The notes below the pieces were generated by a model. The model saw only the letters and a list, made by a program, of their open reading frames with translations, searched no databases and was not told the origin of the DNA. This document shows positions 6,213 to 51,275 of a DNA stretch of 64,000 nucleotides, in pieces; position 1 is the stretch's first letter; the number at the start of each line of letters is the position of its first letter. The DNA comes from a virus, in IMG/VR virus record IMGVR_UViG_3300045988_097708, positions 1-64,000 of that record, one strand, 5' to 3'. Both the position numbers and the translations under genes were made by a program.

Positions 6213-7232
6213 ATGGCCGAGCTTTTACCTATGGACGCGGAGCATCAGCAGGCGTATTACGAGTTGCTGGAAACGACGGTGGGGGAGAGCTTGGCTTATT
6301 TTTACGCCTGCATCCGCTTTGATAAACCTTTTGACATGAAAGCCCTGCCGGGGAACGGAACCAAGAGCAAGTGGACGGCGTACTGCAACAACCTGAAAAA
6401 GAAAAAACTGGACAGGACGTTGGGAGGCGGAGAGCTGGGCTTTCTCGACGGGCTGACGGACATCACCAAGATATTCGGAGAGGGGCTGGAGAACGGCAAC
6501 TTCACCAAGGCGGTGAGCGCGGAGAAAAGCGCACGGGATGGCAGGCAGGGCACCAAGCGGCAGGCCGCAGACTGGGGTGAGGGCACGGGGAAAGTGCCAT
6601 ACACCAGCGAGGACTACAACGAGTTTGACCGGATCTACAACGCGCTGTGCGCCGACTTCGGCGGAGAGCAGGCGGTGAGCGCCAAGCAGCAGCTGATCCT
6701 GCGGAACGTGGCAAAGTGGACAAAGCAGATGAACGACGCCGCGGAGATGGGCGCCATAGACAAGGCCAAGAAGCTATCCAGCATGATACAGGAGAACCTG
6801 GCGTCGGAAAACCTGCGGAAGAAGGACACAAAACCGGTGGAGGACCTGCGGCTGGACAACATGGTGGTGGCGCTGGAGCGGGCAGGACTGCTGAAAAACG
6901 GGAAGCCCTGCGAACCGGACGAGGCGTTCCGTATATTCTTCGGTCGGCCGTGCAAATACCCCTATACGCGGGATGCTGCCGACCAGATGATACTGATAAA
7001 CGAAAACCGGATGCGGCAGAACGACGGACTACCGGAGCTGACAGAGCTGCCGGACGAGATGCGGCTGGAGGACAATTTGGGTGAGTTTGCAGAGGAACCC
7101 AACGAGGCGGAGAAGGAAGCCTACGAAAAGCTGGGGCTGGTGCGGATGCGCCCGGTGAAAAAGAAGAAAAAGGCGGCCAAACTGAAAGCGGACGCAGAGG
7201 ATGTGAACACCGATGGCGAGGCGAACGGGTAA
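6213..7232 (+). CDS. putative terminase small subunit
   Basis: Called by position only: first gene of the late operon, overlapping the terminase large subunit; basic/acidic C-terminus. Confidence 0.45.
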   Translation: MAELLPMDAEHQQAYYELLETTVGESLAYFYACIRFDKPFDMKALPGNGTKSKWTAYCNNLKKKKLDRTLGGGELGFLDGLTDITKIFGEGLENGNFTKAVSAEKSARDGRQGTKRQAADWGEGTGKVPYTSEDYNEFDRIYNALCADFGGEQAVSAKQQLILRNVAKWTKQMNDAAEMGAIDKAKKLSSMIQENLASENLRKKDTKPVEDLRLDNMVVALERAGLLKNGKPCEPDEAFRIFFGRPCKYPYTRDAADQMILINENRMRQNDGLPELTELPDEMRLEDNLGEFAEEPNEAEKEAYEKLGLVRMRPVKKKKKAAKLKADAEDVNTDGEANG

Positions 7233-9069
7233 AGCGTATGTGGCCGGCCTGGGCTGGGTGACAAAAAAGCCCACGCAGGAGCGCAGCTACGAAAACTACG
7301 AGGACGCTTTTTGGGCATTTTTGGTGTGGATATTCCGATGGTACCCGGATAAGGCGTGCGATGTATTCAGAAGCGCGGAGGCGGACTATGGCAACGAAGA
7401 ACTGTTGCAGCGGGTAATGATGCGCGCATACGCCCGCAACGCTTCCGTGTCGTTTACCGGCACTCGCGGCATGACAAAGACCAACACAAAGCTCAAATAT
7501 GCGCTGGTAAACGGACTGGTGTGGCCCGGGACGCAGAGTGCCTATTATGGCCCGGCGTACCGCCAGATGGCGACCATAGGAAGCAAGACATTCAAGCAGA
7601 TCGAGCACGATTACCCGACGCTGGCAAAGCAGTGGCGGGTGACGGCGGACAGCAAGGACGACTTCAAGATAGAGACCGACTGCGGGAGCGCGTTTTACAT
7701 AGCCGCTATGCGAGGAGACAACCTGCATGATGTGACGGCGGAGGAGTACGCACAGGAGGAGAACCCGGCGTTTGACTTCAACGAGTATACCACGGTGGTA
7801 TTGCCGGCGGTGCGACTGACGCATAATGTGAACGGAAAGCCGGACCCCAACTACATCCCCTACAAAGACCACGCCATCACCAGCGCGGGACGGAAGCAAA
7901 ATCACGCTTACGAAACGCGGTGCGAGAACATGAAAGCCATGCTGGCGGGCGAGAGCGCCTTTGCCTATGACATTTCGTGGGAGTGCGTGGTGCTGCAGCA
8001 GATGCGGCCTTTCACATGGGCGCTGAAGTATAAGCGAAAATGCACGGCGGAAAAGTGGATGCGCGAGTTCGAAAGCCGGTACACCGGCGCGGACAGCAAT
8101 CCCATCGTGCGGGACGAGGTGCTGACGGAGTGCCGGAAACTGATGATCGCGGAGAACCGGCACTGCGCCTACGACATAGGCAACAAGTTGAAGCCGGAGG
8201 ACGTGATCTACATCGTGGGGTACGACGTATCCTACGCCGATGACAAGAAAAACGCGAAATGCGCCTGCGTGGTGCTGAAATGCACCCGTCAGACGGACTG
8301 GCTGAAGCGGGACAGGTACCTGAAGCAGGCGGTGTATGTGGACGTGTGGAACCCACCGGTAAAGAGCATGATGCAGGCACAGCGGATCAAGGACGTGTGG
8401 AGCCGCTTCTGCTGCGACGGAGGGGCCGCGACATACCTGGCAATAGACGCATGGCAGTACGGCACCAGCGTGGTGGAGAACCTGATGATGGACCTTGGCG
8501 ACGGCCTTGCGCCGCTGTGCGTGCGGAACCACGCCAGCTTTACGGAGCTGGAGCAGGAGAACGCCGTGCCGTGCCTGTACCCCATCAAGGCGGGCGGCGC
8601 GGGCGTGACGGATCCTGACGCGGAGATGGTGCGGTACGCGGAGCTGCAATTTGAGAACCGGAACGTGGAACTGCTGTGCTCTAACGTGAACGAGGGCGTG
8701 GAGAACTACAAGAAGTACCACCGGATCAAGGACGACAGCATGGATGCCATGCTGGCAGACCCCTACATAAAGACCCGGGAACTGGTGGGGCAGATACAGA
8801 ACCTGAAAAAAGTGGCCAGCGGCACGACCCAAAAGGAAGAACGCATTTCCAAGCACATACAGCGCGATATATGGTCGGCACTGAAATATGCGCTGCGGGT
8901 GGCGCAGATACTGGAGCGCGAGGAGCTGGCGCAGGCGGTGCGGCATAAGAGCGACTGGGACGCGGAGCTGGCAAAATACAAAAACCGCGCCGCGGCACCG
9001 CACAGAGCGGCGGCAGCCGGCGCGGGAGGCCGCACGGTGACGGCGCGGCGCGGCGGGAGGATATGCTGA
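7213..9069 (+). CDS. terminase large subunit
   Basis: 618 aa; Walker-A-like FTGTRGMTKT; acidic nuclease-type segment IVGYDVSYADD; sits before the portal. Confidence 0.8.
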   Translation: MARRTGKAYVAGLGWVTKKPTQERSYENYEDAFWAFLVWIFRWYPDKACDVFRSAEADYGNEELLQRVMMRAYARNASVSFTGTRGMTKTNTKLKYALVNGLVWPGTQSAYYGPAYRQMATIGSKTFKQIEHDYPTLAKQWRVTADSKDDFKIETDCGSAFYIAAMRGDNLHDVTAEEYAQEENPAFDFNEYTTVVLPAVRLTHNVNGKPDPNYIPYKDHAITSAGRKQNHAYETRCENMKAMLAGESAFAYDISWECVVLQQMRPFTWALKYKRKCTAEKWMREFESRYTGADSNPIVRDEVLTECRKLMIAENRHCAYDIGNKLKPEDVIYIVGYDVSYADDKKNAKCACVVLKCTRQTDWLKRDRYLKQAVYVDVWNPPVKSMMQAQRIKDVWSRFCCDGGAATYLAIDAWQYGTSVVENLMMDLGDGLAPLCVRNHASFTELEQENAVPCLYPIKAGGAGVTDPDAEMVRYAELQFENRNVELLCSNVNEGVENYKKYHRIKDDSMDAMLADPYIKTRELVGQIQNLKKVASGTTQKEERISKHIQRDIWSALKYALRVAQILEREELAQAVRHKSDWDAELAKYKNRAAAPHRAAAAGAGGRTVTARRGGRIC

Positions 9070-23242: not shown

Positions 23243-26200
23243 ATGGCGATTTTCAAAGTAACGGCTGTACCTGATTTTTCGCAGCTCAAGAGTGAAATTG
23301 CAAAGCTGCAAAGCAGCCCCGTGACTTTGGGCGTTGATACGCGGCAGGCCAACGTAAACATCAAGGCGACCACGCAAAACCTGAAAAAACTGACGGAAAC
23401 CTTTTCCCCGGATGGGGAACTGGTGCATTCCGTCTCCAATTACAGCAAACGGATCGGCGAGGTTGTAACGGTAACAAAGTCCCTCGACCGCGAAAGCGGC
23501 GAGATGGCCGTGACCAGCAAAAAGGTCACGCAGAACTTCGAGGCACAGGCAAAGGCGGCGCAAAAGGCGGCAAGGGAAGTACAGAGCGCAGAAGATGCCT
23601 ACCGCGCATACACGGCACAGCAGAATAAGGGGTATACGCCCACCGCCATGCAGCGGCGCATTGAGGGCGTGACCGGCATCAGCGGCGGCAACACAAAGAG
23701 CGCGGCGGAGAGCGCGAAGGTTTTTGAAAAAGCATGGCTGAACGCCAGCGGCAAGGTGCAGGACGGAGCGCAAAAGGCGGCAAGGGAAGTAAAAAACGTC
23801 GGAAAAGCCGCGAAGGAGACCTCCGGCTTTGCCGATTTGATGGGCAAGAGCTTCAGTCGGATAGTCCTGCAAATGGCGACATGGCAAATGCTGGGCAACG
23901 CCATCGCCGGTGTAAAGCGCAGTTTTGTCGAGGCGCTGGACACCATGAAGTCCGTGGACGACGAGATGGTGACGATCCGCAAAGTCACCGGTGCGACCAC
24001 GGCGGAGCTGAATAAGATCGAGAAACAGGCATACGACACCGCCAGCGCCTACGGTGTGGCGGCGGACGACTACCTGCAATTTGTGTCGGGCTTCAGCCGC
24101 GCCGGTTACGGCGAACAGGCATCCGCATTGGCGGAGCTGGCTGCCAAGACGCAGATCGTGGGCGACACCAACGCCGAAACGGCGCAGCAGTTCCTTTTGT
24201 CCGTGGACGCGGCGTACAAGTATCAGGGCAACATTGAAAAGCTCACCGCCGTGCTGGACGGAGCCAACGAGATCGACAACAGATACGCGACCTCCATCCA
24301 GAAGGTCGCCGAGGGCTTGGGCAAGGTGGCGCCTATCGCGGCGCAGGCCCATGTGGGCGTGGATGAGCTGACGGCGGCTATCGGTACGATCACCGCTGTG
24401 ACGCAGCGTAGCGGCACAGAGGCGTCCACCGCGCTGCGGGCGCTTTTCCTGAATATCATCGGCGATACCAAGACGGAAATCGACGAGGGTGTGACGTGGA
24501 CCACCGGCGAGATCGCCGGACTGCGGGATGTCATCAAACTCTATGCCAAGGACGCCTACGACGCGGCGCAGGCCACAGGCAGCGTGATAAATCCCATGAA
24601 AGCCATAGGCGGCCTTGCCCAGAGCATGAAGGACGGCGTGCTGACCGAGCAGAAGCTGATGGAGATGGTCAGCGACATCGGCGGAAAGCTGCGTACCTCC
24701 CAGCTGCTGGCGCTGATCCAGAACTGGGATATGTACCAGTCCATGCTGGGAGATTTTGCTGACGCGGCGGGCAGCGCGGACAAGGAAGTAGAAAACGCGC
24801 TGGATAGTTGGACACGCAAGACCGAGATCCTGCACAACAAGTGGACGCAGTTCGTCAGCAATCTGGTGGAGACGGATACCATCAAGAACGCGCTGGACGG
24901 CGTGATCGGGCTGGTGGAGCTGCTGGACAGCGAAGGCGGCCATTTGGTGATAACAGTCGGTTTGCTGACTGGTGCGGTGCTTCTTTTGGGTCACGCCAAA
25001 AAAGAACTGATGGCATCGGAGGCTGTCAAAGACATAAAGGCGGCAAGCGCGGCAACAAAAGAGCTGACGGCAAAGGTTATTGCGTATGCCGCGGCAAAAA
25101 AAGCGGCGGCAGCGGGCGATGGGGAGATGGCGCTACACGCCGCCGAACTAAAAGAAGACCTTGCTGGAGCGCTGGGAAAACTCAAGGTTTTCGGTATCGG
25201 AGCGGCGATTTTTGCGGCGCTGTCGCTGGCAATCAGCCTGAGCACGGAGAAAGCGCGGGCATACGAAAAGGCGCTGGAGGACGTGGAGACGGCGCAGAGT
25301 GCGCTGGACGAGACGAAAAGTGAATATGACGAGCTGATCAACAAGACCGGAGAACTGACAGACGCGGAGAAAAAGAGGCTGGAGGTTCTGAAGGAGATGC
25401 GCCAAGAGCAGGAAAAGCAACTGGAGGCTACGCAGAAATCCGCGTGGGAGGCGTGGGATGCTGCTCACGGAAGCGGCGCCAGCGTGGTGGTCAGCGGGGC
25501 CGAGGGCGTTGGCGGCGGTCTGGGCGTTGGCGCGGTAAAAACGGAGCGCATGGACATCGTGGCGCTGCGGAACTACCGGGAAGAACTGGCGGAGATCGCG
25601 GCGCAGTATCAGGACGGCGAAATGTCCGCGGGTGCGTACTATTCCGCGCTGGAGGATCTGAACGCCGCCCGCGAGGAAAGCGTGGAGACTATCCGTGCGG
25701 CGATACTGGCGGGTTATGAAGTTACTGATGAACAGCGGGAGCTGGTGGATGCCTACGACAGGGTGCAGCAGATATTGGGCGTTGCCAGCGATGCAACAGC
25801 GAAATATGTAAGCGGGCTGGTGGAGGAAGCGGCGCAGAGCGGAAAGACGGAAAAGGAGCTCTATAATCTGGTGGCGGCGCAAATCACCGCCAGCAACACG
25901 AAGCTGAATTTCAGCCAGCAGATCATGGCGCTGCAGCAGTTGGCGGTGCAGGCGGGCTATGCTGGAAATGCGCTGGCAAACACGTTCGCGTTGGCAGGGA
26001 TCAACGAGTCCAACGTCAAGAGGACGGCGGAAGGTCTGCTGTACACTGGGCAATACAGCAGCTATGAAGCGGCTTACGCCGAAGCTCTGCGCCGGGCGCA
26101 GCAGGCGATGCTGTACCAGTTTGGAAAACTGACGTCAACCGCGCCCTCCGGAGGAGGGGGCGGCTCGACCGGAGACGGGTTCTCCGGAAGCGGAGGCGGC

Positions 26201-27343
26201 AGCTCATCCGGCGAAAGTGCGCTGCGGAAGAAGGCACAGGCGGCCATCAAGGCGCTGGAAAAGGAACGGGATGCGGAGCTCCAGCCCATAGAAGCCCAGA
26301 TCGATGCCCTGAAAAAGCAGAACGAGGAGATCGAGCGGGGCGAAAAACTGGAGGAACTGAAGCTGACAGTCCTGAAAAAGCAGGACGCGCTGCTGAACGC
26401 CAGAAACGAGCGGACAGTGCGGCAGTACAACGCCGCAACCGGACAATGGGAATGGGTAGCGGATCCCCAGAAGGTCAAGGAAGCCGAGGAGGCGGTGGAG
26501 GACGCCAAGAAGGACCTGCGGGACTATGAGCGGGACGTGGAACTGGATCTCGCCGTGGAAGAGCTGGAGGCCCGCAGGGAGGCCATCAAGTCGGCGTATC
26601 AGATCAAGATCGACGCATGGCAGGATTATCTGGACGGGCTTTCCGGTGCGGTGGCCGCAGAGGGCGGATACATATCCCAGAGTGTACAGCAAAATCAGGA
26701 TGGAGCTGAGGAAGTAGCAAAGGCGTGGGAAGATGCTGCGGAACGCAGGAAAAAAGCGCTGGCGGCTATCAGCAGCGCGGTTTCCGGCGCGGCAGACATA
26801 CCGGCGGATACAAAACCCCCTGTCTCGGGCGCTATTGCTGGCGCGGTATCTGGCGCTTTGGCAGGAAATCGCAAGCCCGATCTCAGCGCGGGAATGGCGT
26901 CTAAAAAAGCAAACGATATTTTGCAGGGGAAAGCAGATCTTTTGCCAAAGAAAACACCGCAGAAGGGAACTATTTCCAGAGGTGCGGCGGGAAACAAGGT
27001 ATCCCGCTATGACAGCGGCGGCATCCTCAAGGGAATGGGCGGCATCAAGGCCACGGAGCGGGACGAGATGATCCTGCCGCCCGACATTACAGCGCAGATG
27101 ACCCGGCTGGCCAGCGGCGGCAACGTGCAGCAGCTTTTCAGCGGGATGCGGAGCGTGCTTTTTAATGGCGGCATTCCCTACGGCCAGAGCATGGCGGGAG
27201 CGACCACCAACAATGACCGGCATGACGTGACCTACAACACTTACAGCATGAACGGCGTGACACTCAGCCCGCAGGACGCAAACCGTTCGGTCCTGTCGGT
27301 GCTGCAAAGCGCCGCACACCACATGAAGGCATACGGCGCATAA
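23243..27343 (+). CDS. tail tape measure protein
   Basis: 1366 aa, long coiled coils, core segment FSRAGYGEQA...TQRSGTEASTALRALFLNI like TP901-type TMP cores, Gly-rich tract. Confidence 0.9.
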   Translation: MAIFKVTAVPDFSQLKSEIAKLQSSPVTLGVDTRQANVNIKATTQNLKKLTETFSPDGELVHSVSNYSKRIGEVVTVTKSLDRESGEMAVTSKKVTQNFEAQAKAAQKAAREVQSAEDAYRAYTAQQNKGYTPTAMQRRIEGVTGISGGNTKSAAESAKVFEKAWLNASGKVQDGAQKAAREVKNVGKAAKETSGFADLMGKSFSRIVLQMATWQMLGNAIAGVKRSFVEALDTMKSVDDEMVTIRKVTGATTAELNKIEKQAYDTASAYGVAADDYLQFVSGFSRAGYGEQASALAELAAKTQIVGDTNAETAQQFLLSVDAAYKYQGNIEKLTAVLDGANEIDNRYATSIQKVAEGLGKVAPIAAQAHVGVDELTAAIGTITAVTQRSGTEASTALRALFLNIIGDTKTEIDEGVTWTTGEIAGLRDVIKLYAKDAYDAAQATGSVINPMKAIGGLAQSMKDGVLTEQKLMEMVSDIGGKLRTSQLLALIQNWDMYQSMLGDFADAAGSADKEVENALDSWTRKTEILHNKWTQFVSNLVETDTIKNALDGVIGLVELLDSEGGHLVITVGLLTGAVLLLGHAKKELMASEAVKDIKAASAATKELTAKVIAYAAAKKAAAAGDGEMALHAAELKEDLAGALGKLKVFGIGAAIFAALSLAISLSTEKARAYEKALEDVETAQSALDETKSEYDELINKTGELTDAEKKRLEVLKEMRQEQEKQLEATQKSAWEAWDAAHGSGASVVVSGAEGVGGGLGVGAVKTERMDIVALRNYREELAEIAAQYQDGEMSAGAYYSALEDLNAAREESVETIRAAILAGYEVTDEQRELVDAYDRVQQILGVASDATAKYVSGLVEEAAQSGKTEKELYNLVAAQITASNTKLNFSQQIMALQQLAVQAGYAGNALANTFALAGINESNVKRTAEGLLYTGQYSSYEAAYAEALRRAQQAMLYQFGKLTSTAPSGGGGGSTGDGFSGSGGGSSSGESALRKKAQAAIKALEKERDAELQPIEAQIDALKKQNEEIERGEKLEELKLTVLKKQDALLNARNERTVRQYNAATGQWEWVADPQKVKEAEEAVEDAKKDLRDYERDVELDLAVEELEARREAIKSAYQIKIDAWQDYLDGLSGAVAAEGGYISQSVQQNQDGAEEVAKAWEDAAERRKKALAAISSAVSGAADIPADTKPPVSGAIAGAVSGALAGNRKPDLSAGMASKKANDILQGKADLLPKKTPQKGTISRGAAGNKVSRYDSGGILKGMGGIKATERDEMILPPDITAQMTRLASGGNVQQLFSGMRSVLFNGGIPYGQSMAGATTNNDRHDVTYNTYSMNGVTLSPQDANRSVLSVLQSAAHHMKAYGA

Positions 27344-36061: not shown

Positions 36062-36277
36062 ATGAAGCTGAACAACAAAGTCTATGACATCCTGAAGTGG
36101 ATCGTGATGATCGTGCTGCCCGCCATCAGCGCCCTGTATGTGGGGCTGGGCAGCATCTGGGGCTGGCCGTACATCGAGCAGGTGGCCGGCAGCATCTCCT
36201 GCGTCACGGTGTTCCTTGGCGCGCTGCTGGGCATCTCCACGGCCCAGTACAACAGGGGTGTGAAAGGCAATGGCTAA
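36062..36277 (+). CDS. holin (Dp-1-type)
   Basis: MKLNNKVYDILKWIVMIVLPAISALY...FLGALLGISTAQYN resembles the Dp-1 holin as I recall it; two TM helices; directly upstream of the endolysin. Confidence 0.75.
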   Translation: MKLNNKVYDILKWIVMIVLPAISALYVGLGSIWGWPYIEQVAGSISCVTVFLGALLGISTAQYNRGVKGNG

Positions 36278-37067
36278 GCGGGTATATCTGTCCCCCAGCG
36301 ACCAGCGCAGAAACACATACGCTGTTGGGGGCACCACAGAGGACGTGCAGTGCGGGCGCATCGCGGCGGCCTGCAAGGCGGCGCTGGAGCGCTCCGGCGT
36401 GGAGGTGATGGTCGGGCAGTACGACACCATGGCAAACCGCGTGGCCGAATCCAACCGGTTCAAGGCCGATCTGCACGTCCCCATCCACACCAATGCGGCC
36501 AACGGAAATGCCAGCGGCACACGGGTCTTCTGCTACAAAGAAGATCCAGCCAGCGCAGGCTACAGGGCCTGCAAGGCGGTTCTGGATATGCTGGGGCCTG
36601 TGACGCTCGGTGCGCCGGATCTGGTTCGCGCGAATCCCAGCCTGTTTGAGGTGAAGTACCCCGTCGCGCCGACGGTATATATCGAAGTGGATTTTCACGA
36701 TGTACCCCGTATCGCAGAGTGGATCATCGCCAACACAGTCCTCATCGGAGAGACCATCGCCGAGGGCCTGTGCAATGCGCTGGGCGTGGCGTTCGTCAGA
36801 GGCGAGCATACCCCCGAGCCTACGCCTGTGCAGGAGGAGACTGTGACGAAAGCAGTGCGGGTGCTGCGGCGCGGCATGGAGGGCGCGGACGTGAAGACCT
36901 TGCAGGCGGCGCTCATCGCCTATGGCTTTTCCTGCGGCGCGGCCGGTGCGGACGGAGACTTCGGCAGCGGCACCGAGGCGGCGCTGAAAAAGTTCCAGAC
37001 CAAGTACAATCTTGGGGCCGACGGTATCGCGGGCAACGGGACGTGGGGCAAACTGCTGGGCAAGTAA
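36270..37067 (+). CDS. endolysin: N-acetylmuramoyl-L-alanine amidase + PG_binding_1 domain
   Basis: Amidase_3-like N-terminus (YLSPSDQ..N, HVPIHTNA, E in YIEVDFHD); C-terminal GADVKTLQAALIAYGF..DGDFGSGTEAALKKFQ. Confidence 0.85.
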   Translation: MAKRVYLSPSDQRRNTYAVGGTTEDVQCGRIAAACKAALERSGVEVMVGQYDTMANRVAESNRFKADLHVPIHTNAANGNASGTRVFCYKEDPASAGYRACKAVLDMLGPVTLGAPDLVRANPSLFEVKYPVAPTVYIEVDFHDVPRIAEWIIANTVLIGETIAEGLCNALGVAFVRGEHTPEPTPVQEETVTKAVRVLRRGMEGADVKTLQAALIAYGFSCGAAGADGDFGSGTEAALKKFQTKYNLGADGIAGNGTWGKLLGK

Positions 37068-37076
37068 CGGATAAAA

Positions 37077-37107
37077 AAGGACACTCCCTTTCGCGGGGAG
37101 TGTCCTT
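37077..37107. terminator. bidirectional hairpin between endolysin and integrase (AAGGACACTCCC / GGGAGTGTCCTT)
   Basis: 12-bp perfect stem, A-run before and T-rich after; convergent genes on either side. Confidence 0.7.
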
Positions 37108-37108
37108 C

Positions 37109-43965: not shown

Positions 43966-44769
43966 TCAATGCATACGGGAGGCGACAAGCTTGGCGCGGT
44001 AGGCGCGGACGATTCCCTCGTAAAACCAGCGCAGTTTCTTTTCCTGCGAGATGACGTGAAGTTTGCTTATACGGCGGCATTCGGCCACGGTAGCACCGCC
44101 GCGACGTATACGCGCTTGCAGATTTTTCTGCCGGACGCTGAGGTTGACACCACCCAGTTTTTCCAATTCGGCGTACATCTCACCGATGGTGGTATGGTAG
44201 TTGAGACCGTATTCCTCACACATCTGACGGATGGTGTGGTTGATGTCCTCTTTCCATTCCTCTGCATCGGAGGTAGAGGGACGGGTGATAGCAGAAAGTG
44301 TCTGGTTCACCATCGTGCGTGTTTCCTGCTGCTGGGTGGTCAGTTCAGCGATCTGCTTTGCCTGCTGCTTTTGCTGAAGCTCCATCTTGATGATGGCACG
44401 GGCCTCGTAGGACAGGGCGGAGAAGTCTGCCTCGGTCAGGCCCTGCTGCTGGGAGCGCAATTCCTGCTCCATGGCATTAAAGGCGTTGATGTACTTCATC
44501 TTCCACGTCAACGCTTCCTTGCCGGTAAAGCCCATAGCGAGGAGGGTGAAGCCGTCGCGGTTCATAAGGTACATGGGGTACTCCTGCCCATTCTGCGGGT
44601 GGATGTAGGTGGTTTTGAAGAACATGGGGGTATGCTCAAAATTGGGCAGACCCCCAATCAGATTCTCGATGTCACGTAGGACGTTCTTGTGTTCCTTGCC
44701 GAAGTGCTCCGCAATGTCGCGGCTGCTGGCAGTGGGCTGGCCGTTGCTGATGGTCAATAACTCATTCAT
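43966..44769 (-). CDS. Rha-family phage regulatory protein, copy 2
   Basis: MNELLTISNGQPTASSRDIAEHFGKEHKNVL; C-terminal half diverged from copy 1. Confidence 0.8.
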   Translation of the reverse strand: MNELLTISNGQPTASSRDIAEHFGKEHKNVLRDIENLIGGLPNFEHTPMFFKTTYIHPQNGQEYPMYLMNRDGFTLLAMGFTGKEALTWKMKYINAFNAMEQELRSQQQGLTEADFSALSYEARAIIKMELQQKQQAKQIAELTTQQQETRTMVNQTLSAITRPSTSDAEEWKEDINHTIRQMCEEYGLNYHTTIGEMYAELEKLGGVNLSVRQKNLQARIRRGGATVAECRRISKLHVISQEKKLRWFYEGIVRAYRAKLVASRMH

Positions 44770-44915: not shown

Positions 44916-44990
44916 TAGACGGCACCCGTGCGGTGCTGGCGGAAAGCGGAGCGCTGATCTTTGGTCGGATGGAGCGCTCTGCTTTTTATT
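44916..44990 (+). ncRNA. candidate about 75-nt sRNA (promoter + intrinsic terminator, no ORF)
   Basis: Starts about 7 nt after the -10; internal hairpin GGCACC/GGTGCT; terminator GAGCGC...GCGCTC + TGCTTTTTATTT; 3' end overlaps the stop of the convergent RHH gene. Confidence 0.5.
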
Positions 44991-45153
44991 TACCCGGAAG
45001 CAGCATGATGCCGTCGCGTATGCCCTCCGTGCGCTTCTTGCCGGTACGCTTGCAGTATTCGTCCAGAATTGCCAGCGTTTTATCGTCAAGGCGGACGTGG
45101 AGGGGGTTTGACTTCGGATTTTCGGCTTTCGGGCGTCCTGTGCGTGGACTCAA
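44986..45153 (-). CDS. ribbon-helix-helix (CopG-like) regulator, 55 aa
   Basis: TTG start after GAGGTGA; GRPKAENPKSNPLHVRLDDKTLAILDEYCKRTGKKRTEGIRDGI, a typical RHH pattern. Confidence 0.65.
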   Translation of the reverse strand: MSPRTGRPKAENPKSNPLHVRLDDKTLAILDEYCKRTGKKRTEGIRDGIMLLPGK

Positions 45154-45167
45154 ATTATTCACCTCAC

Positions 45168-45494: not shown

Positions 45495-45524
45495 AACCCG
45501 CGCGGCTGAGGTTGCGCGGGCTTT
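45495..45524. terminator. bidirectional terminator CCCGCGC / GCGCGGG
   Basis: Seen directly; U-run on the minus-strand side. Confidence 0.65.
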
Positions 45525-45527
45525 ATG

Positions 45528-46658
45528 TTAGTCATCGTCTACCCACATCCAGTCCCAGGTGCCGGTTTCGGAATTGTATTGGCAAACATACTTTTGCTTC
45601 TTTTTGGGTGTTGAGTCCTTCTCCTGCGTTTGCTCACCGCCGGAGGGTGCGGCCCATTCCCACTGACCTGTTTCGGAGTTGTAAATGCGAACTGTTCGCT
45701 CCTGATCCTTAGAATCGACCGTGGTGTCATCAGAGACATCCCCGCCGATGTCATCGGGGGTAATGTCGGTGTAGGTATCGTCTGGAAGCGAGATACTTTC
45801 GGGATATACAGTGTCTGGAATCGTGTAGGTAGTTTTGGCGGTTGAAGATGTGGTGGCATTCCGTATGCGGACCTCAGTAGAGGAAAGCACTTTCCCTGCG
45901 TGAGAAAATGTAATGGTGATCCACCCATATCTTAATGTGCCGATACCGGATTCCCAACAAACATAAGCAGATTCGCCGTCTTTCAACTTGTAAGGAAGTG
46001 TTTCGTAGTCAGAATCCCACGGAAATCCTGCCTGCTTGGTATTCGCTGAAACATAATAATCAACGCGATACTGAATGTCTATTTCTTCATCCGGTTTTCC
46101 ACCGCTTACCTCTATGTAAAAATACAGAGGGTCATCTGTCCGGAAGTCCGTCGTACTTGGATAGCCGTTTTCACAGCGTGTCGCATAAGAAACGCCGGTC
46201 CACTTGTAGACCTCATCGGAGAGCAAGCTGCTGTTTGGATAGTCTGCCTCGATCAGGCACTCGAGATATTCCAATGTGGTTGGATTGCGCCTGTCTCGGT
46301 TTTTATCGGCGTATTGATACCGCGCATCCAATGCTTTCTGCACAGAGTCTTTATAGTTTCCCAGTTCGTCAAAGGCCAGTACAGCTTGCGGATAGTACCC
46401 TTTATCGAAAAGGGCTTTGGCAGCATTGTAAGACTTCAATTTCAGAAAATAGGGAATAAAGATCGCACATAGGACAATGAAAATGGCTATGACAGAGATC
46501 CCCGCGATTCGTATGGCGTTCTTTCTCTTCTTTTGTTGCTGGGAAGCCATTTGCTCCAGTTCTGCATCGGTATAACGAGGATCCTTGCCGCACTGGGGGC
46601 ATAATGTGGCCTGATTGCTGACGCTGTGGCCACAGTGAGGGCAAGCCTTGAGGGCCAT
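45528..46658 (-). CDS. zinc-ribbon membrane protein with TPR-like segment and C-terminal TMP-like repeats
   Basis: CPHCG..CPQCG, one TM helix, low-GC codon usage; C-terminal ERTVRIYNSETGQWEW and QYNSETGTWDW. Confidence 0.75.
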   Translation of the reverse strand: MALKACPHCGHSVSNQATLCPQCGKDPRYTDAELEQMASQQQKKRKNAIRIAGISVIAIFIVLCAIFIPYFLKLKSYNAAKALFDKGYYPQAVLAFDELGNYKDSVQKALDARYQYADKNRDRRNPTTLEYLECLIEADYPNSSLLSDEVYKWTGVSYATRCENGYPSTTDFRTDDPLYFYIEVSGGKPDEEIDIQYRVDYYVSANTKQAGFPWDSDYETLPYKLKDGESAYVCWESGIGTLRYGWITITFSHAGKVLSSTEVRIRNATTSSTAKTTYTIPDTVYPESISLPDDTYTDITPDDIGGDVSDDTTVDSKDQERTVRIYNSETGQWEWAAPSGGEQTQEKDSTPKKKQKYVCQYNSETGTWDWMWVDDD

Positions 46659-47332
46659 TACTGCTGCGCCTCCTTCTTTTCGCTGAGCTGTTCCAGATTT
46701 ACGCGGACCGCATGGAGATCAAGCAGCAGTTTGGATGCGGCGTAAAACATAGCACCGGAGACAAAGCAGCTGACCGCCGCGATAGCGAAGGTAACGAAAT
46801 TGAAATAGGACTCTGTGTAGGTGTAATAATACCCCACTGTATGGGTTTGGATGGACAGGAGGATAGAGCCGATGCCGCCGGCTATCCAGATGATCCACGC
46901 GAAGACGTCCATCAGTTTAGAAGCGGTGGTCTTGTAACGGTCATCAGGAGTCTTGGGGAGCGCCGCAGCCGCTGCGGCTTCCTTGGCAAGATTTTCCTTG
47001 CGCTCCTGGTCCTCCTGTTCCCGCTTGGCACCGTAGATCGTGGCAGCTGGGCAGCCGCAGCTGGGACACATTCCTTTGGCGGTGATCTGCGGGGACGTTA
47101 TCGCTGCGCCGCATTCAGGACAGGTGTAGGTTTCCGCGCCTGCCGCTGCTGTCGGCTCCGGCTTTGCTTTTTGCGGAGGAGAGGAATCCTTCGTAGGTGC
47201 TTTCTTTGCCTCCGGTTCCGCTGTTCCCAACACTTCACTTGCCGGAAGGCCGCAATAGGGACACGCATTGCGCCTTTTGACAAATTCATCCTGTACGCTG
47301 TTGCCGCATTTAGGACAGGTGACGATCTTCAT
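46658..47332 (-). CDS. double zinc-ribbon membrane protein
   Basis: CPKCG..CPYCG and CPECG..CPSCGC, two C-terminal TM helices; start/stop overlap with the downstream gene. Confidence 0.7.
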   Translation of the reverse strand: MKIVTCPKCGNSVQDEFVKRRNACPYCGLPASEVLGTAEPEAKKAPTKDSSPPQKAKPEPTAAAGAETYTCPECGAAITSPQITAKGMCPSCGCPAATIYGAKREQEDQERKENLAKEAAAAAALPKTPDDRYKTTASKLMDVFAWIIWIAGGIGSILLSIQTHTVGYYYTYTESYFNFVTFAIAAVSCFVSGAMFYAASKLLLDLHAVRVNLEQLSEKKEAQQ

Positions 47333-49376: not shown

Positions 49377-51275
49377 TCACATTCCGGGCAGCGCCATGAG
49401 GGCGCTGCCGGAGGTGATGAGCATGGACGGGTCGGCGATGGTCTTTTCGTAGCTGTCCGCACCCTGGAAGTCGTCAATGACGGCCTGTTCTTCGGTGGTC
49501 ATGTCGGCGTAGTGCTTTTTGCCGTAGGTGGGCGGCAGCCAGTTCTTTTTCTGACCGGCAAAGATGTTCAGACGGTCGATGATGCGGGACGCCTCCGGCT
49601 TAAATTTGATGTGGCAGGTGCCCTTTTTGTAGAAGGTGCAGGTAAAGTAGGTGAAATCCGCCTTGTTGGTGTAGTCGGCGTTGGCGATGCGGATGGCGTT
49701 GCCTATGGGCGTGTGGAACGAGGTTTCGCCTCTGTCCAGATAGTTCATAGCGCGTTCCAGATCGGAGATCAGGCTGTTCACCCGGTAGCTGTCCAGCTTT
49801 TCTCGGCCCCAGCTGGCGTGGCAGCCGTTGGAGGGGATGATGACCTTCATGCCCACCTTGTGGGCCTTGTTCGTCGCCCAGCCGTTGTAGTAATGGATGT
49901 TGTTGGCGCACTCCGGGTACCAGGAGTGCTTGGCGGAGAAGGTGTCAAACAGATCAAGGATGGAATCCTCGACGCCGCGGGAGAGCTGGTGGGCGATCTC
50001 CCGCATGACGGTTTCGATGTTGTACCGGGAGAAATCGTACTCGGAAAGAGAATCGACCTTGCTGGAATAGTCCTGCTGCATGGCAGAGGTCATTTTGTCG
50101 GTGAGTTCCGGGCGGCGCAGGAGATTGCTCCAATACTTGGCGCGGAGACCGAAAAGGTAGCTGTTCAGGATAGTGGCGTTGTTGCCGGGGTTCTTGACGC
50201 CGACCTCCAGCGACAAAAGGGGCTTTGAGTATTTTTCGCCACTTTCAAAAAAGGGGCGCAGGGCGTTAAATTCGCCTATGAGCTTTTCACCCAATTTTGC
50301 TTCAAATTCAAAGCCATCGATCATGTTCTGCAGCCAGTCGGCGGAGGCAAGGTCGGTGGTCTGTTCGCTGCTTGAAGTGCTCTTTTCGTGGGCGCGGCGG
50401 AGGGAGGAAAGAATGTCGCTGGGGATTTCTTTTTTCGGTATGTTCACATAGACCAGCGCGATCTCTACGTCGGTGGGGCGCTGGGCATGGACAAATGCAT
50501 TTTCGATAAATTCAATGCGGGCGTTGTGTTCGTGCAGTTTCTGCACAAGCACTTTTCGCCGATTGGTGTAGGGATTGCGGATGGTTTCCGCGTTCAGCAG
50601 ACACACGATCTGACCGCCGCGCTCCATGAGGGAGAGGGCGTGCAAAAGGTGTTCGTCGCCGCTGTCAAAAGGCGGATTCATGATGCAGAGGTCGTACTGC
50701 TTGAAGCTGCGGAAGGTGAGAAAATCATCGTGGACCACGTGCAGCCCCTTGCCGCGCAGGAGGGCGGCAAGGTCGCTGTCGCGCTCGATGCAGTCTATGT
50801 AGGTGTCGTTCTCGTTGAAGGATATACGGTGGCCGTTCCTGTAGTTGCGGGCGAAAGCGGTAACGGCATCGGCAAGGTCGCCTTTACCGGCGGAGGGTTC
50901 GAGGATAGAAAAAACATTTTTCCAGTCCACGCAGGAGAGCATTTTCCCAGCCAGCTTGGAGGGCGTGGGGTAAAAGCCGCTGTTGTCGAAGGACGGCAGG
51001 CGGCGGAGATCGGCGGCGCGGCTGTTCGCTGCTGAGGCGGCTACGGCGGCGCTGTGGTCGCTGTACCAGTCGCGGATCTTCTTTTTCGCCCCGGCGATGG
51101 TGGAGGCGCGCCCCAGGTAGTCGCCGCGGTCGTCATCTCCGATGGTGGAGCTGACAATATATTCCGTGTTGCCGTAGTAAGAACTGGCCTTGATGGTGGC
51201 GATCTCGGCGTCGTGGGCGGAAACGGCAATGTGTTCATCTCCATAACGGTTTTTCTTGGTGGCGTAGGTAAACAT
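49377..51275 (-). CDS. N6-adenine DNA methyltransferase with large C-terminal domain
   Basis: ILEPSAGKGDL (AdoMet motif I) and CIMNPPF (motif IV NPPF); 632 aa. Confidence 0.8.
   Translation of the reverse strand: MFTYATKKNRYGDEHIAVSAHDAEIATIKASSYYGNTEYIVSSTIGDDDRGDYLGRASTIAGAKKKIRDWYSDHSAAVAASAANSRAADLRRLPSFDNSGFYPTPSKLAGKMLSCVDWKNVFSILEPSAGKGDLADAVTAFARNYRNGHRISFNENDTYIDCIERDSDLAALLRGKGLHVVHDDFLTFRSFKQYDLCIMNPPFDSGDEHLLHALSLMERGGQIVCLLNAETIRNPYTNRRKVLVQKLHEHNARIEFIENAFVHAQRPTDVEIALVYVNIPKKEIPSDILSSLRRAHEKSTSSSEQTTDLASADWLQNMIDGFEFEAKLGEKLIGEFNALRPFFESGEKYSKPLLSLEVGVKNPGNNATILNSYLFGLRAKYWSNLLRRPELTDKMTSAMQQDYSSKVDSLSEYDFSRYNIETVMREIAHQLSRGVEDSILDLFDTFSAKHSWYPECANNIHYYNGWATNKAHKVGMKVIIPSNGCHASWGREKLDSYRVNSLISDLERAMNYLDRGETSFHTPIGNAIRIANADYTNKADFTYFTCTFYKKGTCHIKFKPEASRIIDRLNIFAGQKKNWLPPTYGKKHYADMTTEEQAVIDDFQGADSYEKTIADPSMLITSGSALMALPGM

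Follow-up and report, generated by a model that had tools for sequence, protein, structure and literature searches.

The window analysed here is a stretch of 64,000 nucleotides of viral DNA (positions 1-64,000 of the IMG/VR record IMGVR_UViG_3300045988_097708), to which all coordinates below refer. It encodes a membrane protein of 376 amino acids (aa), read from the open reading frame (ORF) 45528..46658 on the minus strand, whose C-terminal tail shares a short peptide with the tape measure protein (TMP) of the same phage. The shared peptide is real and specific. Our analysis points to a short, near-invariant element of the TMP and to two unrelated exported families that copy it. For the membrane protein we consider it possible, if somewhat short of probable, that it interferes with TMP-dependent genome entry by mimicry.

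A peptide shared with the tape measure protein

The peptide strings that a sequence-only reading of the window had reported are recovered by translating all three sites. Positions 26408-26467 of the plus strand translate to ERTVRQYNAATGQWEWVADP, the TMP copy; on the minus strand, positions 45642-45701 translate to ERTVRIYNSETGQWEWAAPS, the first hairpin of the membrane protein, and positions 45549-45581 to QYNSETGTWDW, its second copy. The reported identity of hairpin 1 and the TMP segment, 14 of 20 residues, is likewise correct. In a pairwise BLASTP comparison of both proteins, hairpin 1 aligns with TMP aa 1056-1090 (E = 1e-6) and hairpin 2 is matched with E = 0.002. Compared with all 689 six-frame ORFs of the window (86,721 aa), the last 66 residues of the membrane protein find the TMP as the sole real match (E = 1.1e-6), the second-best ORF having E = 0.74. 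For YNxxTGxW[ED]W, a degenerate DNA pattern has three matches in the window and none in 100 shuffles. On the level of DNA, hairpin 1 and the TMP segment are identical at 42 of 60 nucleotides, and synonymous codons differ at 7 of the 14 identical residues. The resemblance is therefore not a recent DNA duplication and, as had been proposed, reflects conservation of the peptide.

Architecture of the membrane protein

The membrane protein is composed of the following parts, with structural assignments taken from an AlphaFold2 model (27 homologues in the alignment, mean pLDDT 76.6):

45528..46658, minus strand: complete gene of the 376-aa type II membrane protein (ORF, AlphaFold2 model and 36 homologues).
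46581..46649, minus strand: N-terminal zinc ribbon, aa 4-26, CPHC...CPQC, predicted to be cytoplasmic (PF13248).
46443..46508, minus strand: single transmembrane (TM) helix, aa 51-72 (hydropathy peak of 2.86 at aa 51-69).
45861..46442, minus strand: ectodomain, consisting of a helical part (aa 89-150) and a beta-sandwich (aa 154-266), pLDDT >90.
45702..45860, minus strand: disordered acidic linker, aa 267-319, pLDDT <50.
45642..45701, minus strand: hairpin 1, the TMP-like copy, ERTVRIYNSETGQWEWAAPS, aa 320-339, with modelled strands at 323-327 and 332-336.
45531..45593, minus strand: hairpin 2 at the extreme C-terminus, KYVCQYNSETGTWDWMWVDDD, aa 356-376, with modelled strands at 355-362 and 367-374 (pLDDT 66-77).

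The zinc ribbon is recognised by Zn_ribbon_3 (PF13248) with E = 1.8e-6 and 27.6 bits, above the gathering cutoff of 27, and its cysteines are nearly invariant in the homologue alignment (A1). The TM segment is preceded by the basic stretch KKRKNAIR and lies within a continuous modelled helix (aa 31-85). For the ectodomain, a Foldseek search of the PDB with the full model returns generic Ig/FnIII-like sandwich matches only. The linker contains 12 Thr, 11 Asp, 6 Ser and 4 Pro among 53 residues; the model is disordered over aa 269-322, and a further disordered spacer separates the two hairpins, whose faces are rich in aromatic residues.

No signal peptide is found on the protein: the N-terminus (MALKACPHCGH) is already part of the zinc ribbon, and hydrophobicity is confined to one segment, aa 51-69. 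The first 50 residues have a net charge of +4 and the remainder, the ectodomain, of -21. A zinc ribbon must fold in the cytoplasm. Together with the positive-inside rule, this leads us to predict an N-in/C-out topology that would place the hairpins outside the cell. The question of whether the C-terminus faces outwards, which the sequence-only reading had raised as a check on its proposal, thus receives a predicted answer in the affirmative, with which the Thr/Asp/Ser/Pro composition of the linker agrees.

The hairpin element of tape measure proteins

Two features of the TMP are relevant here:

23243..27343, plus strand: TMP, 1366 aa, with a match to PF10145 (PhageMin_Tail; E = 8e-16, 58.9 bits, cutoff 33.2).
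26333..26629, plus strand: helix/beta-hairpin/helix element, aa 1031-1129, whose hairpin ERTVRQYNAATGQWEWVADP lies at 26408-26467.

The assignment as TMP is given by PF10145, by a length of more than 1000 aa and by the position between tail genes, with a tail protein (phrog_1887) encoded downstream. TM-like segments are located at aa 565-583 and 644-667. A single-sequence AlphaFold2 model of aa 1030-1130 has a pLDDT of 91 and consists of a helix (1031-1055), two strands (1059-1063 and 1068-1072) and a second helix (1075-1129). With Foldseek the element has no significant match among solved structures; a weak lead is prefoldin beta (1fxk_B, E = 1.3, prob 0.63), itself a helix/hairpin/helix protein.

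The conservation of the element was assessed independently of the motif. The N-terminal domain of the window TMP served as query, and among its 80 closest relatives in IMG/VR the hairpin element is found in 77, in variants that include NERTVRMYNAESGQWEWIADP and KERTVRVFNAATGQWEWEANA. In the other three contigs the longest ORFs are shorter or atypical. Conversely, a 40-bit degenerate DNA pattern for YNxxTGQWEW matches 77 IMG/VR contigs, and 76 of these matches fall into TMP-sized ORFs of up to ~2070 aa, many of them cut by the end of the locus. In complete ORFs the motif lies 120-550 residues from the C-terminus, in the same coiled-coil setting with the conserved context L.NA..ERTVR.YNA.TGQWEWVAD...V..A.E. 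The element is evidently under strong constraint and near-invariant within this phage lineage.

A profile of the hairpin (31 positions), searched against 1.84 billion representative proteins, yields 275 matches with E<=1e-3. Approximately 90 of the best 150 of these are TMP clusters with a single full-length match in the C-terminal part, which are proteins of 1100-2200 aa or fragments thereof and carry PF10145 where checked. In species-representative genomes, matches in TMP context belong to metagenome-assembled genomes (MAGs) labelled Oscillospiraceae, Clostridia, Clostridiales or Eubacteriales, obtained from human, rumen, yak and rabbit gut. A tblastn search of INPHARED with the TMP motif finds no cultured phage, only two unannotated phage contigs from human faeces and noise, and the peptide strings are absent from the searchable literature.

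Conservation of the tail among homologues

The family of the membrane protein is small. It comprises 36 clusters at 90% identity, and its tail-bearing members form 3 clusters at 50% identity. The family is also modular: one group of homologues shares the sandwich of the window protein, and in a second group (P0016-P0036) an unrelated Cys/His-rich domain replaces the Ig-like ectodomain. This segment (alignment columns ~190-280) has a repeated C..GC...H..C pattern; its predicted location is extracellular, an unusual place for a zinc-knuckle-like sequence. Between the window protein and this second group, identity amounts to ~42% for zinc ribbon and TM segment, 22% for the helical part, 10% for the sandwich, 20% for the linker and ~20% for the spacer, compared to 84-89% for hairpin 1 and 57-90% for hairpin 2. 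With identities far above those of all other regions, the hairpins are therefore its most constrained part. Hairpin 2 is present in every tail-bearing homologue. When searched as a DNA pattern in IMG/VR and JGI metagenomes, the hairpin-2 tail is confined, among real proteins, to the zinc-ribbon family; on other architectures it is found in none beyond a few short or unrelated ORFs that resemble chance matches.

Homologues of the membrane protein occur on 13 IMG/VR contigs, compared to 80 contigs with a close relative of the TMP. They are confined to a sub-lineage whose TMP N-terminal domain is at least 88% identical to that of the window, and at least 9 of the ~28 contigs of this sub-lineage, roughly a third, carry one. 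The gene is hence present in some but not all close relatives, as is characteristic of a moron. All nine checkable contigs with a tail-bearing homologue also have a motif-bearing TMP, a co-occurrence that is uninformative since TMPs without the motif are rare in the lineage.

Specificity of the hairpin signature

Matches of the hairpin profile over positions 3-28, which include the two strands together with their flanks, are limited to TMPs, to the family of the membrane protein and to a second exported family (P0068, described below). The top matches in multiple copies are WD40 proteins of eukaryotic type, for example SGSxDKTVRIWNAETGQQVGEPL, and PQQ/BamB-like propellers, for example FIVRAYNSKTGELVWED. 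These propeller matches cover profile positions ~6-19 only, compared to positions 3-28 for the TMPs and the membrane protein. A WD40 or PQQ propeller identity of the membrane protein itself was rejected, as no Pfam family of this kind matches at E<=1 and the AlphaFold2 model consists of isolated two-stranded hairpins within disorder. Choline- or cell-wall-binding repeats, RHS/YD repeats and WW domains were also considered and find no Pfam support at E<=1.

Several further families contain a related hairpin. Small proteins of ~90-240 aa on phage contigs of high-GC appearance (for example GRGDYDAATGLWEWYE) share GRG[DE]YDxxTGLW[ED]WYE and form a separate family (loci L091, L096, L099, L102, L106, L108-L116, L122, L127, L130, L132-L150 and L153). 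Phage proteins of 444-450 aa (loci L093-L095, L103, L107, L115, L118, L121, L125, L151 and L154; context EGNFYNPDTGSWEWGYN) have a hairpin EGNFYNP[DE]TGxWEWGYN in the middle of the protein; their N-terminal part presumably resembles an XkdF-type prohead protease/scaffold. Giant phage ORFs (>4361 aa, cut by the locus end; L043, 1066-14149, plus strand, and L097) have a hairpin core at the N-terminus, MWQYNQQTGQWEWVEKP and MWKYNEATGKWEWIGQE, followed by hydrophobic Gly/Ala-rich segments. The hairpin core is also found in unrelated bacterial proteins. A secreted protein of 142 aa (P0069) consists of a signal-like sequence and five tandem hairpin units of the form KYNPxTGxWxxxAPD, which indicates that hairpins of this kind can form what are, by prediction, extracellular repeat arrays.

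A second exported family with the tape measure element

The second family comprises only two clusters and is thus very rare. It is represented by P0068 (293 aa) and P0184, proteins of ~300 aa. A homologue of P0068 is encoded at ~7000-7965 on the plus strand of L241, an Oscillospiraceae MAG from sheep rumen (JAFXXH010000058), where a subtilisin-like peptidase and an ATPase-like gene are its neighbours. P0068 and this homologue both have a signal-like N-terminus, a beta domain at the C-terminus and, in two copies (RSVRTYSNGSWVWVADSKKVEAAQ and ERTTRVYNSSTGQWEWTNPKAD), the helix/hairpin/helix element. The similarity of P0068 to the window TMP extends across 84 aa and takes in the helical flanks (E = 3e-7). 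This family is homologous to the TMP, and the element has therefore been copied into exported proteins more than once.

Genomic context

The window resembles the genome of a temperate-type siphophage with portal, TMP and tail genes on the plus strand. The features adjoining the gene of the membrane protein, together with the lysis and integration genes, are:

46658..47332, minus strand: upstream partner gene, 224 aa, with two zinc ribbons and two C-terminal TM segments (aa 143-161 and 179-197; ORF).
45497..45520, minus strand: strong intrinsic terminator directly past the stop codon of the membrane protein gene, CCCGCGC...GCGCGGG followed by TTTTGCTT (read from the sequence).
36270-37067: endolysin of the siphophage genome.
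37109-38137: integrase, convergent with the endolysin.

The stop codon of the partner overlaps the start codon of the membrane protein gene. In the divergent relatives L155 and L158, homologues of the partner (42-50% identity) are located immediately upstream of homologues of the membrane protein; therefore the two genes form a cassette, in which the membrane protein is second. The slot on the integrase side is syntenic, with the order partner, membrane protein, RHH (ribbon-helix-helix) gene, Rha ... HU ... Ant, integrase and convergent endolysin. The GC content of the membrane protein gene is 0.46-0.51, compared to 0.55-0.63 in the flanks. The scan for terminators had flagged the stem at 45497..45520 on the plus strand, and its assignment to the minus strand was read from the sequence. 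No consensus promoter was found upstream of the cassette; the RHH gene that follows the membrane protein has a separate consensus promoter. Altogether, the gene looks like an accessory, moron-like unit, and its GC dip and the terminator of its own agree with the moron character suggested earlier.

The minus-strand block past the integrase is unusually long (~20 kb) and contains Rha/Ant-type regulators, a small RHH repressor-like gene and methyltransferases besides the cassette. Two Rha/anti-repressor paralogues are located at 38409-39215 and 43966-44769, both on the minus strand, and at least three genes in the window resemble DNA methyltransferases (1013-2758, 49377-51275 and 60646-61233). 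Upstream of the RHH repressor-like gene (58 aa, 44986-45162) lies a perfect sigma-70 promoter, TTGACA-17-TATAAT (45216-45188, minus strand). It is bracketed by two 13-bp direct repeats, TGGGCTACATAAA, at ~45207-45195 and ~45180-45168, which are plausible candidates for autoregulatory operator sites.

Proposed function and alternative explanations

The phage is best viewed as a temperate-type siphophage of gut Clostridia (Oscillospiraceae) that would express, while resident in the cell, a two-gene moron-like cassette. The product of the second gene would be a membrane protein with a long, flexible, acidic extracellular stalk bearing two small Trp-rich beta-hairpins, the first of which shares a signature of 17-20 residues with the essentially invariant TMP element of the lineage, that of its own TMP included. 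Because this element is invariant, mimicking it would make sense. At high local concentration on the outer side of the membrane or inside the wall, the tethered hairpins might act along one of two routes: (a) they occupy an envelope partner that the hairpin of an incoming TMP needs, the partner being common to both, or (b) by pairing with the TMP element itself, they spoil its assembly into a conduit. Either way, the membrane protein would interfere with the entry of phage DNA, resulting in superinfection exclusion (Sie) or in the shielding of progeny from abortive ejection. Of the functions considered this is the likeliest, and it is proposed by analogy with Ltp, HK97 gp15 and SNIPE (see below).

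The sequence-only reading had already proposed a decoy of this kind. What stands of the proposal is the specific peptide, the conservation of the TMP element, hairpins that are more conserved than the rest of the protein, the predicted outward topology and the moron-like gene. The recurrence of TMP-like copies in the exported P0068 family likewise speaks for it. Several observations weigh against the proposal. The membrane protein has no similarity to Sie or defence families in PADLOC, PHROG or Pfam; in PADLOC-DB 2.0 it matches 0 families, its partner has noise-level matches only, and the surrounding block matches methyltransferases only. The tail is lacking in 7 of the 36 homologues, which end before the linker, and such tail-less homologues also occur in phages with a motif-bearing TMP. 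The group P0013-P0015 lacks hairpin 1 and has hairpin 2 only, the less TMP-like copy. Within the TMP, the hairpin lies ~390 aa C-terminal to the TM-like segments. The integrase abuts the endolysin in the window (36270-38137), in L155 (18217-20587) and in L158 (17302-19202), with a gap of 33-143 bp to the convergent end of the endolysin gene. These assemblies therefore represent a non-integrated (circular or episomal) arrangement, or else attP overlaps the 3' end of the integrase gene, and lysogenic expression of the membrane protein is hence an assumption. Finally, the concern that the motif is a common low-information repeat applies to a part of it: the first strand and turn (RTVRxYNxxTGQ) are a generic hairpin signature common to WD40 and PQQ repeats, and the 10-residue core, searched as a relaxed DNA pattern, occurs in several unrelated phage proteins. 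It does not apply to the full span, whose matches are restricted as described above.

The main rival explanation, which we regard as unlikely, sees in the Trp-rich hairpin a shared envelope-binding module that recognises a component of the wall or membrane surface and has no role in exclusion. The TMP would use it to hold on during penetration, and the membrane protein merely to anchor or position its ectodomain; the actual function would belong to another part, such as the Ig-like or Cys-rich domain, or to the partner protein. The location of the aromatic-rich hairpins at the end of a long Thr/Asp/Ser/Pro linker, as is typical of wall-spanning stalks, fits this explanation, as does the existence of secreted tandem-hairpin proteins such as P0069 with its five KYNPxTGxW units. 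The exchange of ectodomains on a retained tail is likewise expected if the tail is the anchor and the ectodomain the payload. However, no Pfam wall-binding repeat (CW_binding_1, GW, WxL, SH3b or LysM) is among the 20 families listed for the membrane protein at E<=1, and the full signature does not extend across surface proteins of the host clade. Tail-less homologues exist as well, and anchoring would therefore be dispensable.

Somewhat less likely still is a purely structural role, in which the hairpins mediate self-association of the membrane protein, alone or with its partner, and have no functional link to the TMP. The hairpin of the TMP would then serve trimer formation or tail assembly in the producing cell, and the resemblance would be due to shared ancestry or convergence. 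The confidently predicted helix/hairpin/helix fold of the TMP element is compatible with this, and so is the weak lead to prefoldin beta, whose hairpins build an oligomerisation barrel; moreover, the strand/turn signature is also seen in the blades of WD40 and PQQ propellers and among unrelated phage proteins. Yet the identity spans both strands and the flanks (ERTVR...TGQWEWV) and thereby exceeds the generic part, and a structural role would leave unexplained that conservation is far higher in the hairpins than in the folded domains. That the match is a coincidental, low-information beta-hairpin without biological meaning is very improbable and, on sequence statistics, already disfavoured: the core Y[ND]xxTGxW[ED]W does occur in several unrelated families (small high-GC, XkdF-like 444-aa, giant virion and bacterial proteins), but the window-wide match is without competitor, one protein has two copies, conservation is extreme within both families, and homology to the TMP is seen, over 84 aa, in a second exported family.

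Returning to mimicry as the function of the tail, we may extend it to both exported families. It is doubtful, though worth stating, that the phage-encoded zinc-ribbon family and the P0068/L241 family of the Oscillospiraceae genome together constitute an unrecognised class of entry blockers that mimic the TMP hairpin. Such proteins would compete for, or poison, the step in which the hairpin of the TMP engages its partner. If so, the hairpin would be indispensable to the TMPs of gut Clostridia siphophages, for which such an element has not been described so far. It is known that the crossing of the Gram-positive envelope by siphophage TMPs is poorly understood, and we know of no experimental model of this step for phages of gut Clostridia. 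Decoys would offer a defined peptide with which to probe the partner of the TMP. If the proteins are not decoys, the hairpin is still a marker of the TMP lineage and a portable extracellular module.

Comparison with known systems

In the searchable literature we found no exclusion protein that mimics a TMP, no precedent for a TMP decoy and no description of the TMP element. The closest known system is Ltp of the Streptococcus thermophilus phage TP-J34, which PMC3952083, citing Bebeacua et al. 2013, presents as a Sie lipoprotein targeting the TMP. Ltp is phage-encoded, sits on the outside of a Gram-positive membrane and acts on TMP-dependent DNA entry; for the likewise phage-encoded membrane protein, the same location and the same step are proposed. 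In contrast to the membrane protein, the lipoprotein Ltp binds the TMP through helix-turn-helix-like repeat domains; the membrane protein instead resembles the TMP, lacks a lipobox or lipoprotein signal and is anchored by a zinc ribbon and a TM helix. No similarity in sequence or fold to the repeat domains of Ltp was detected with Pfam, PHROG, PADLOC or Foldseek against the PDB.

The gp15 protein of HK97 is reportedly a moron-encoded Sie protein of the membrane that blocks genome entry where TMP and membrane meet, within the TMP/PtsG/FkpA entry pathway (Cumby et al. 2012 and 2015, in the reference list of PMC13190303). The gene studied here is moron-like in its reduced GC and in the terminator that follows it, although no consensus promoter was found upstream of the cassette; gp15, however, is a small inner-membrane protein of a phage with a Gram-negative host and has no homology to the membrane protein. 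To our knowledge, no TMP-like motif has been reported for gp15.

SNIPE associates with the TMP during injection, and in some of its homologues the N-terminal region is homologous to a protein of phage penetration, the tail needle of P22 (PMC13190303). A defence protein that is built with a piece of the injection machinery constitutes a precedent for copying. In contrast to the membrane protein, which has no enzymatic domain and whose TMP-like parts would point outwards, SNIPE is a cytoplasm-facing nuclease (DUF4041 and GIY-YIG). CwpV of Clostridioides difficile is, similarly, a surface protein of a member of the Clostridia. Its C-terminal repeats reportedly confer phage resistance, and PMC4737114 discusses DNA injection and superinfection exclusion. 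It differs in being a host protein of the S-layer family with long repeats of another kind. We know of no resemblance of CwpV to a TMP.

WD40 and PQQ propellers share the strand/turn signature [DE]-[KR]-T-V-R-I-[WY]-N-x-E-T-G-Q (P0037, P0050 and P0054). Their blades are four-stranded units of 40 residues arranged in arrays, whereas the membrane protein has isolated two-stranded hairpins whose second strand is QWEWV. If mimicry is its function, the membrane protein would add a further variant to superinfection exclusion at the membrane, and with it a novel mechanism, the first to exclude phages by mimicking the TMP instead of binding it.

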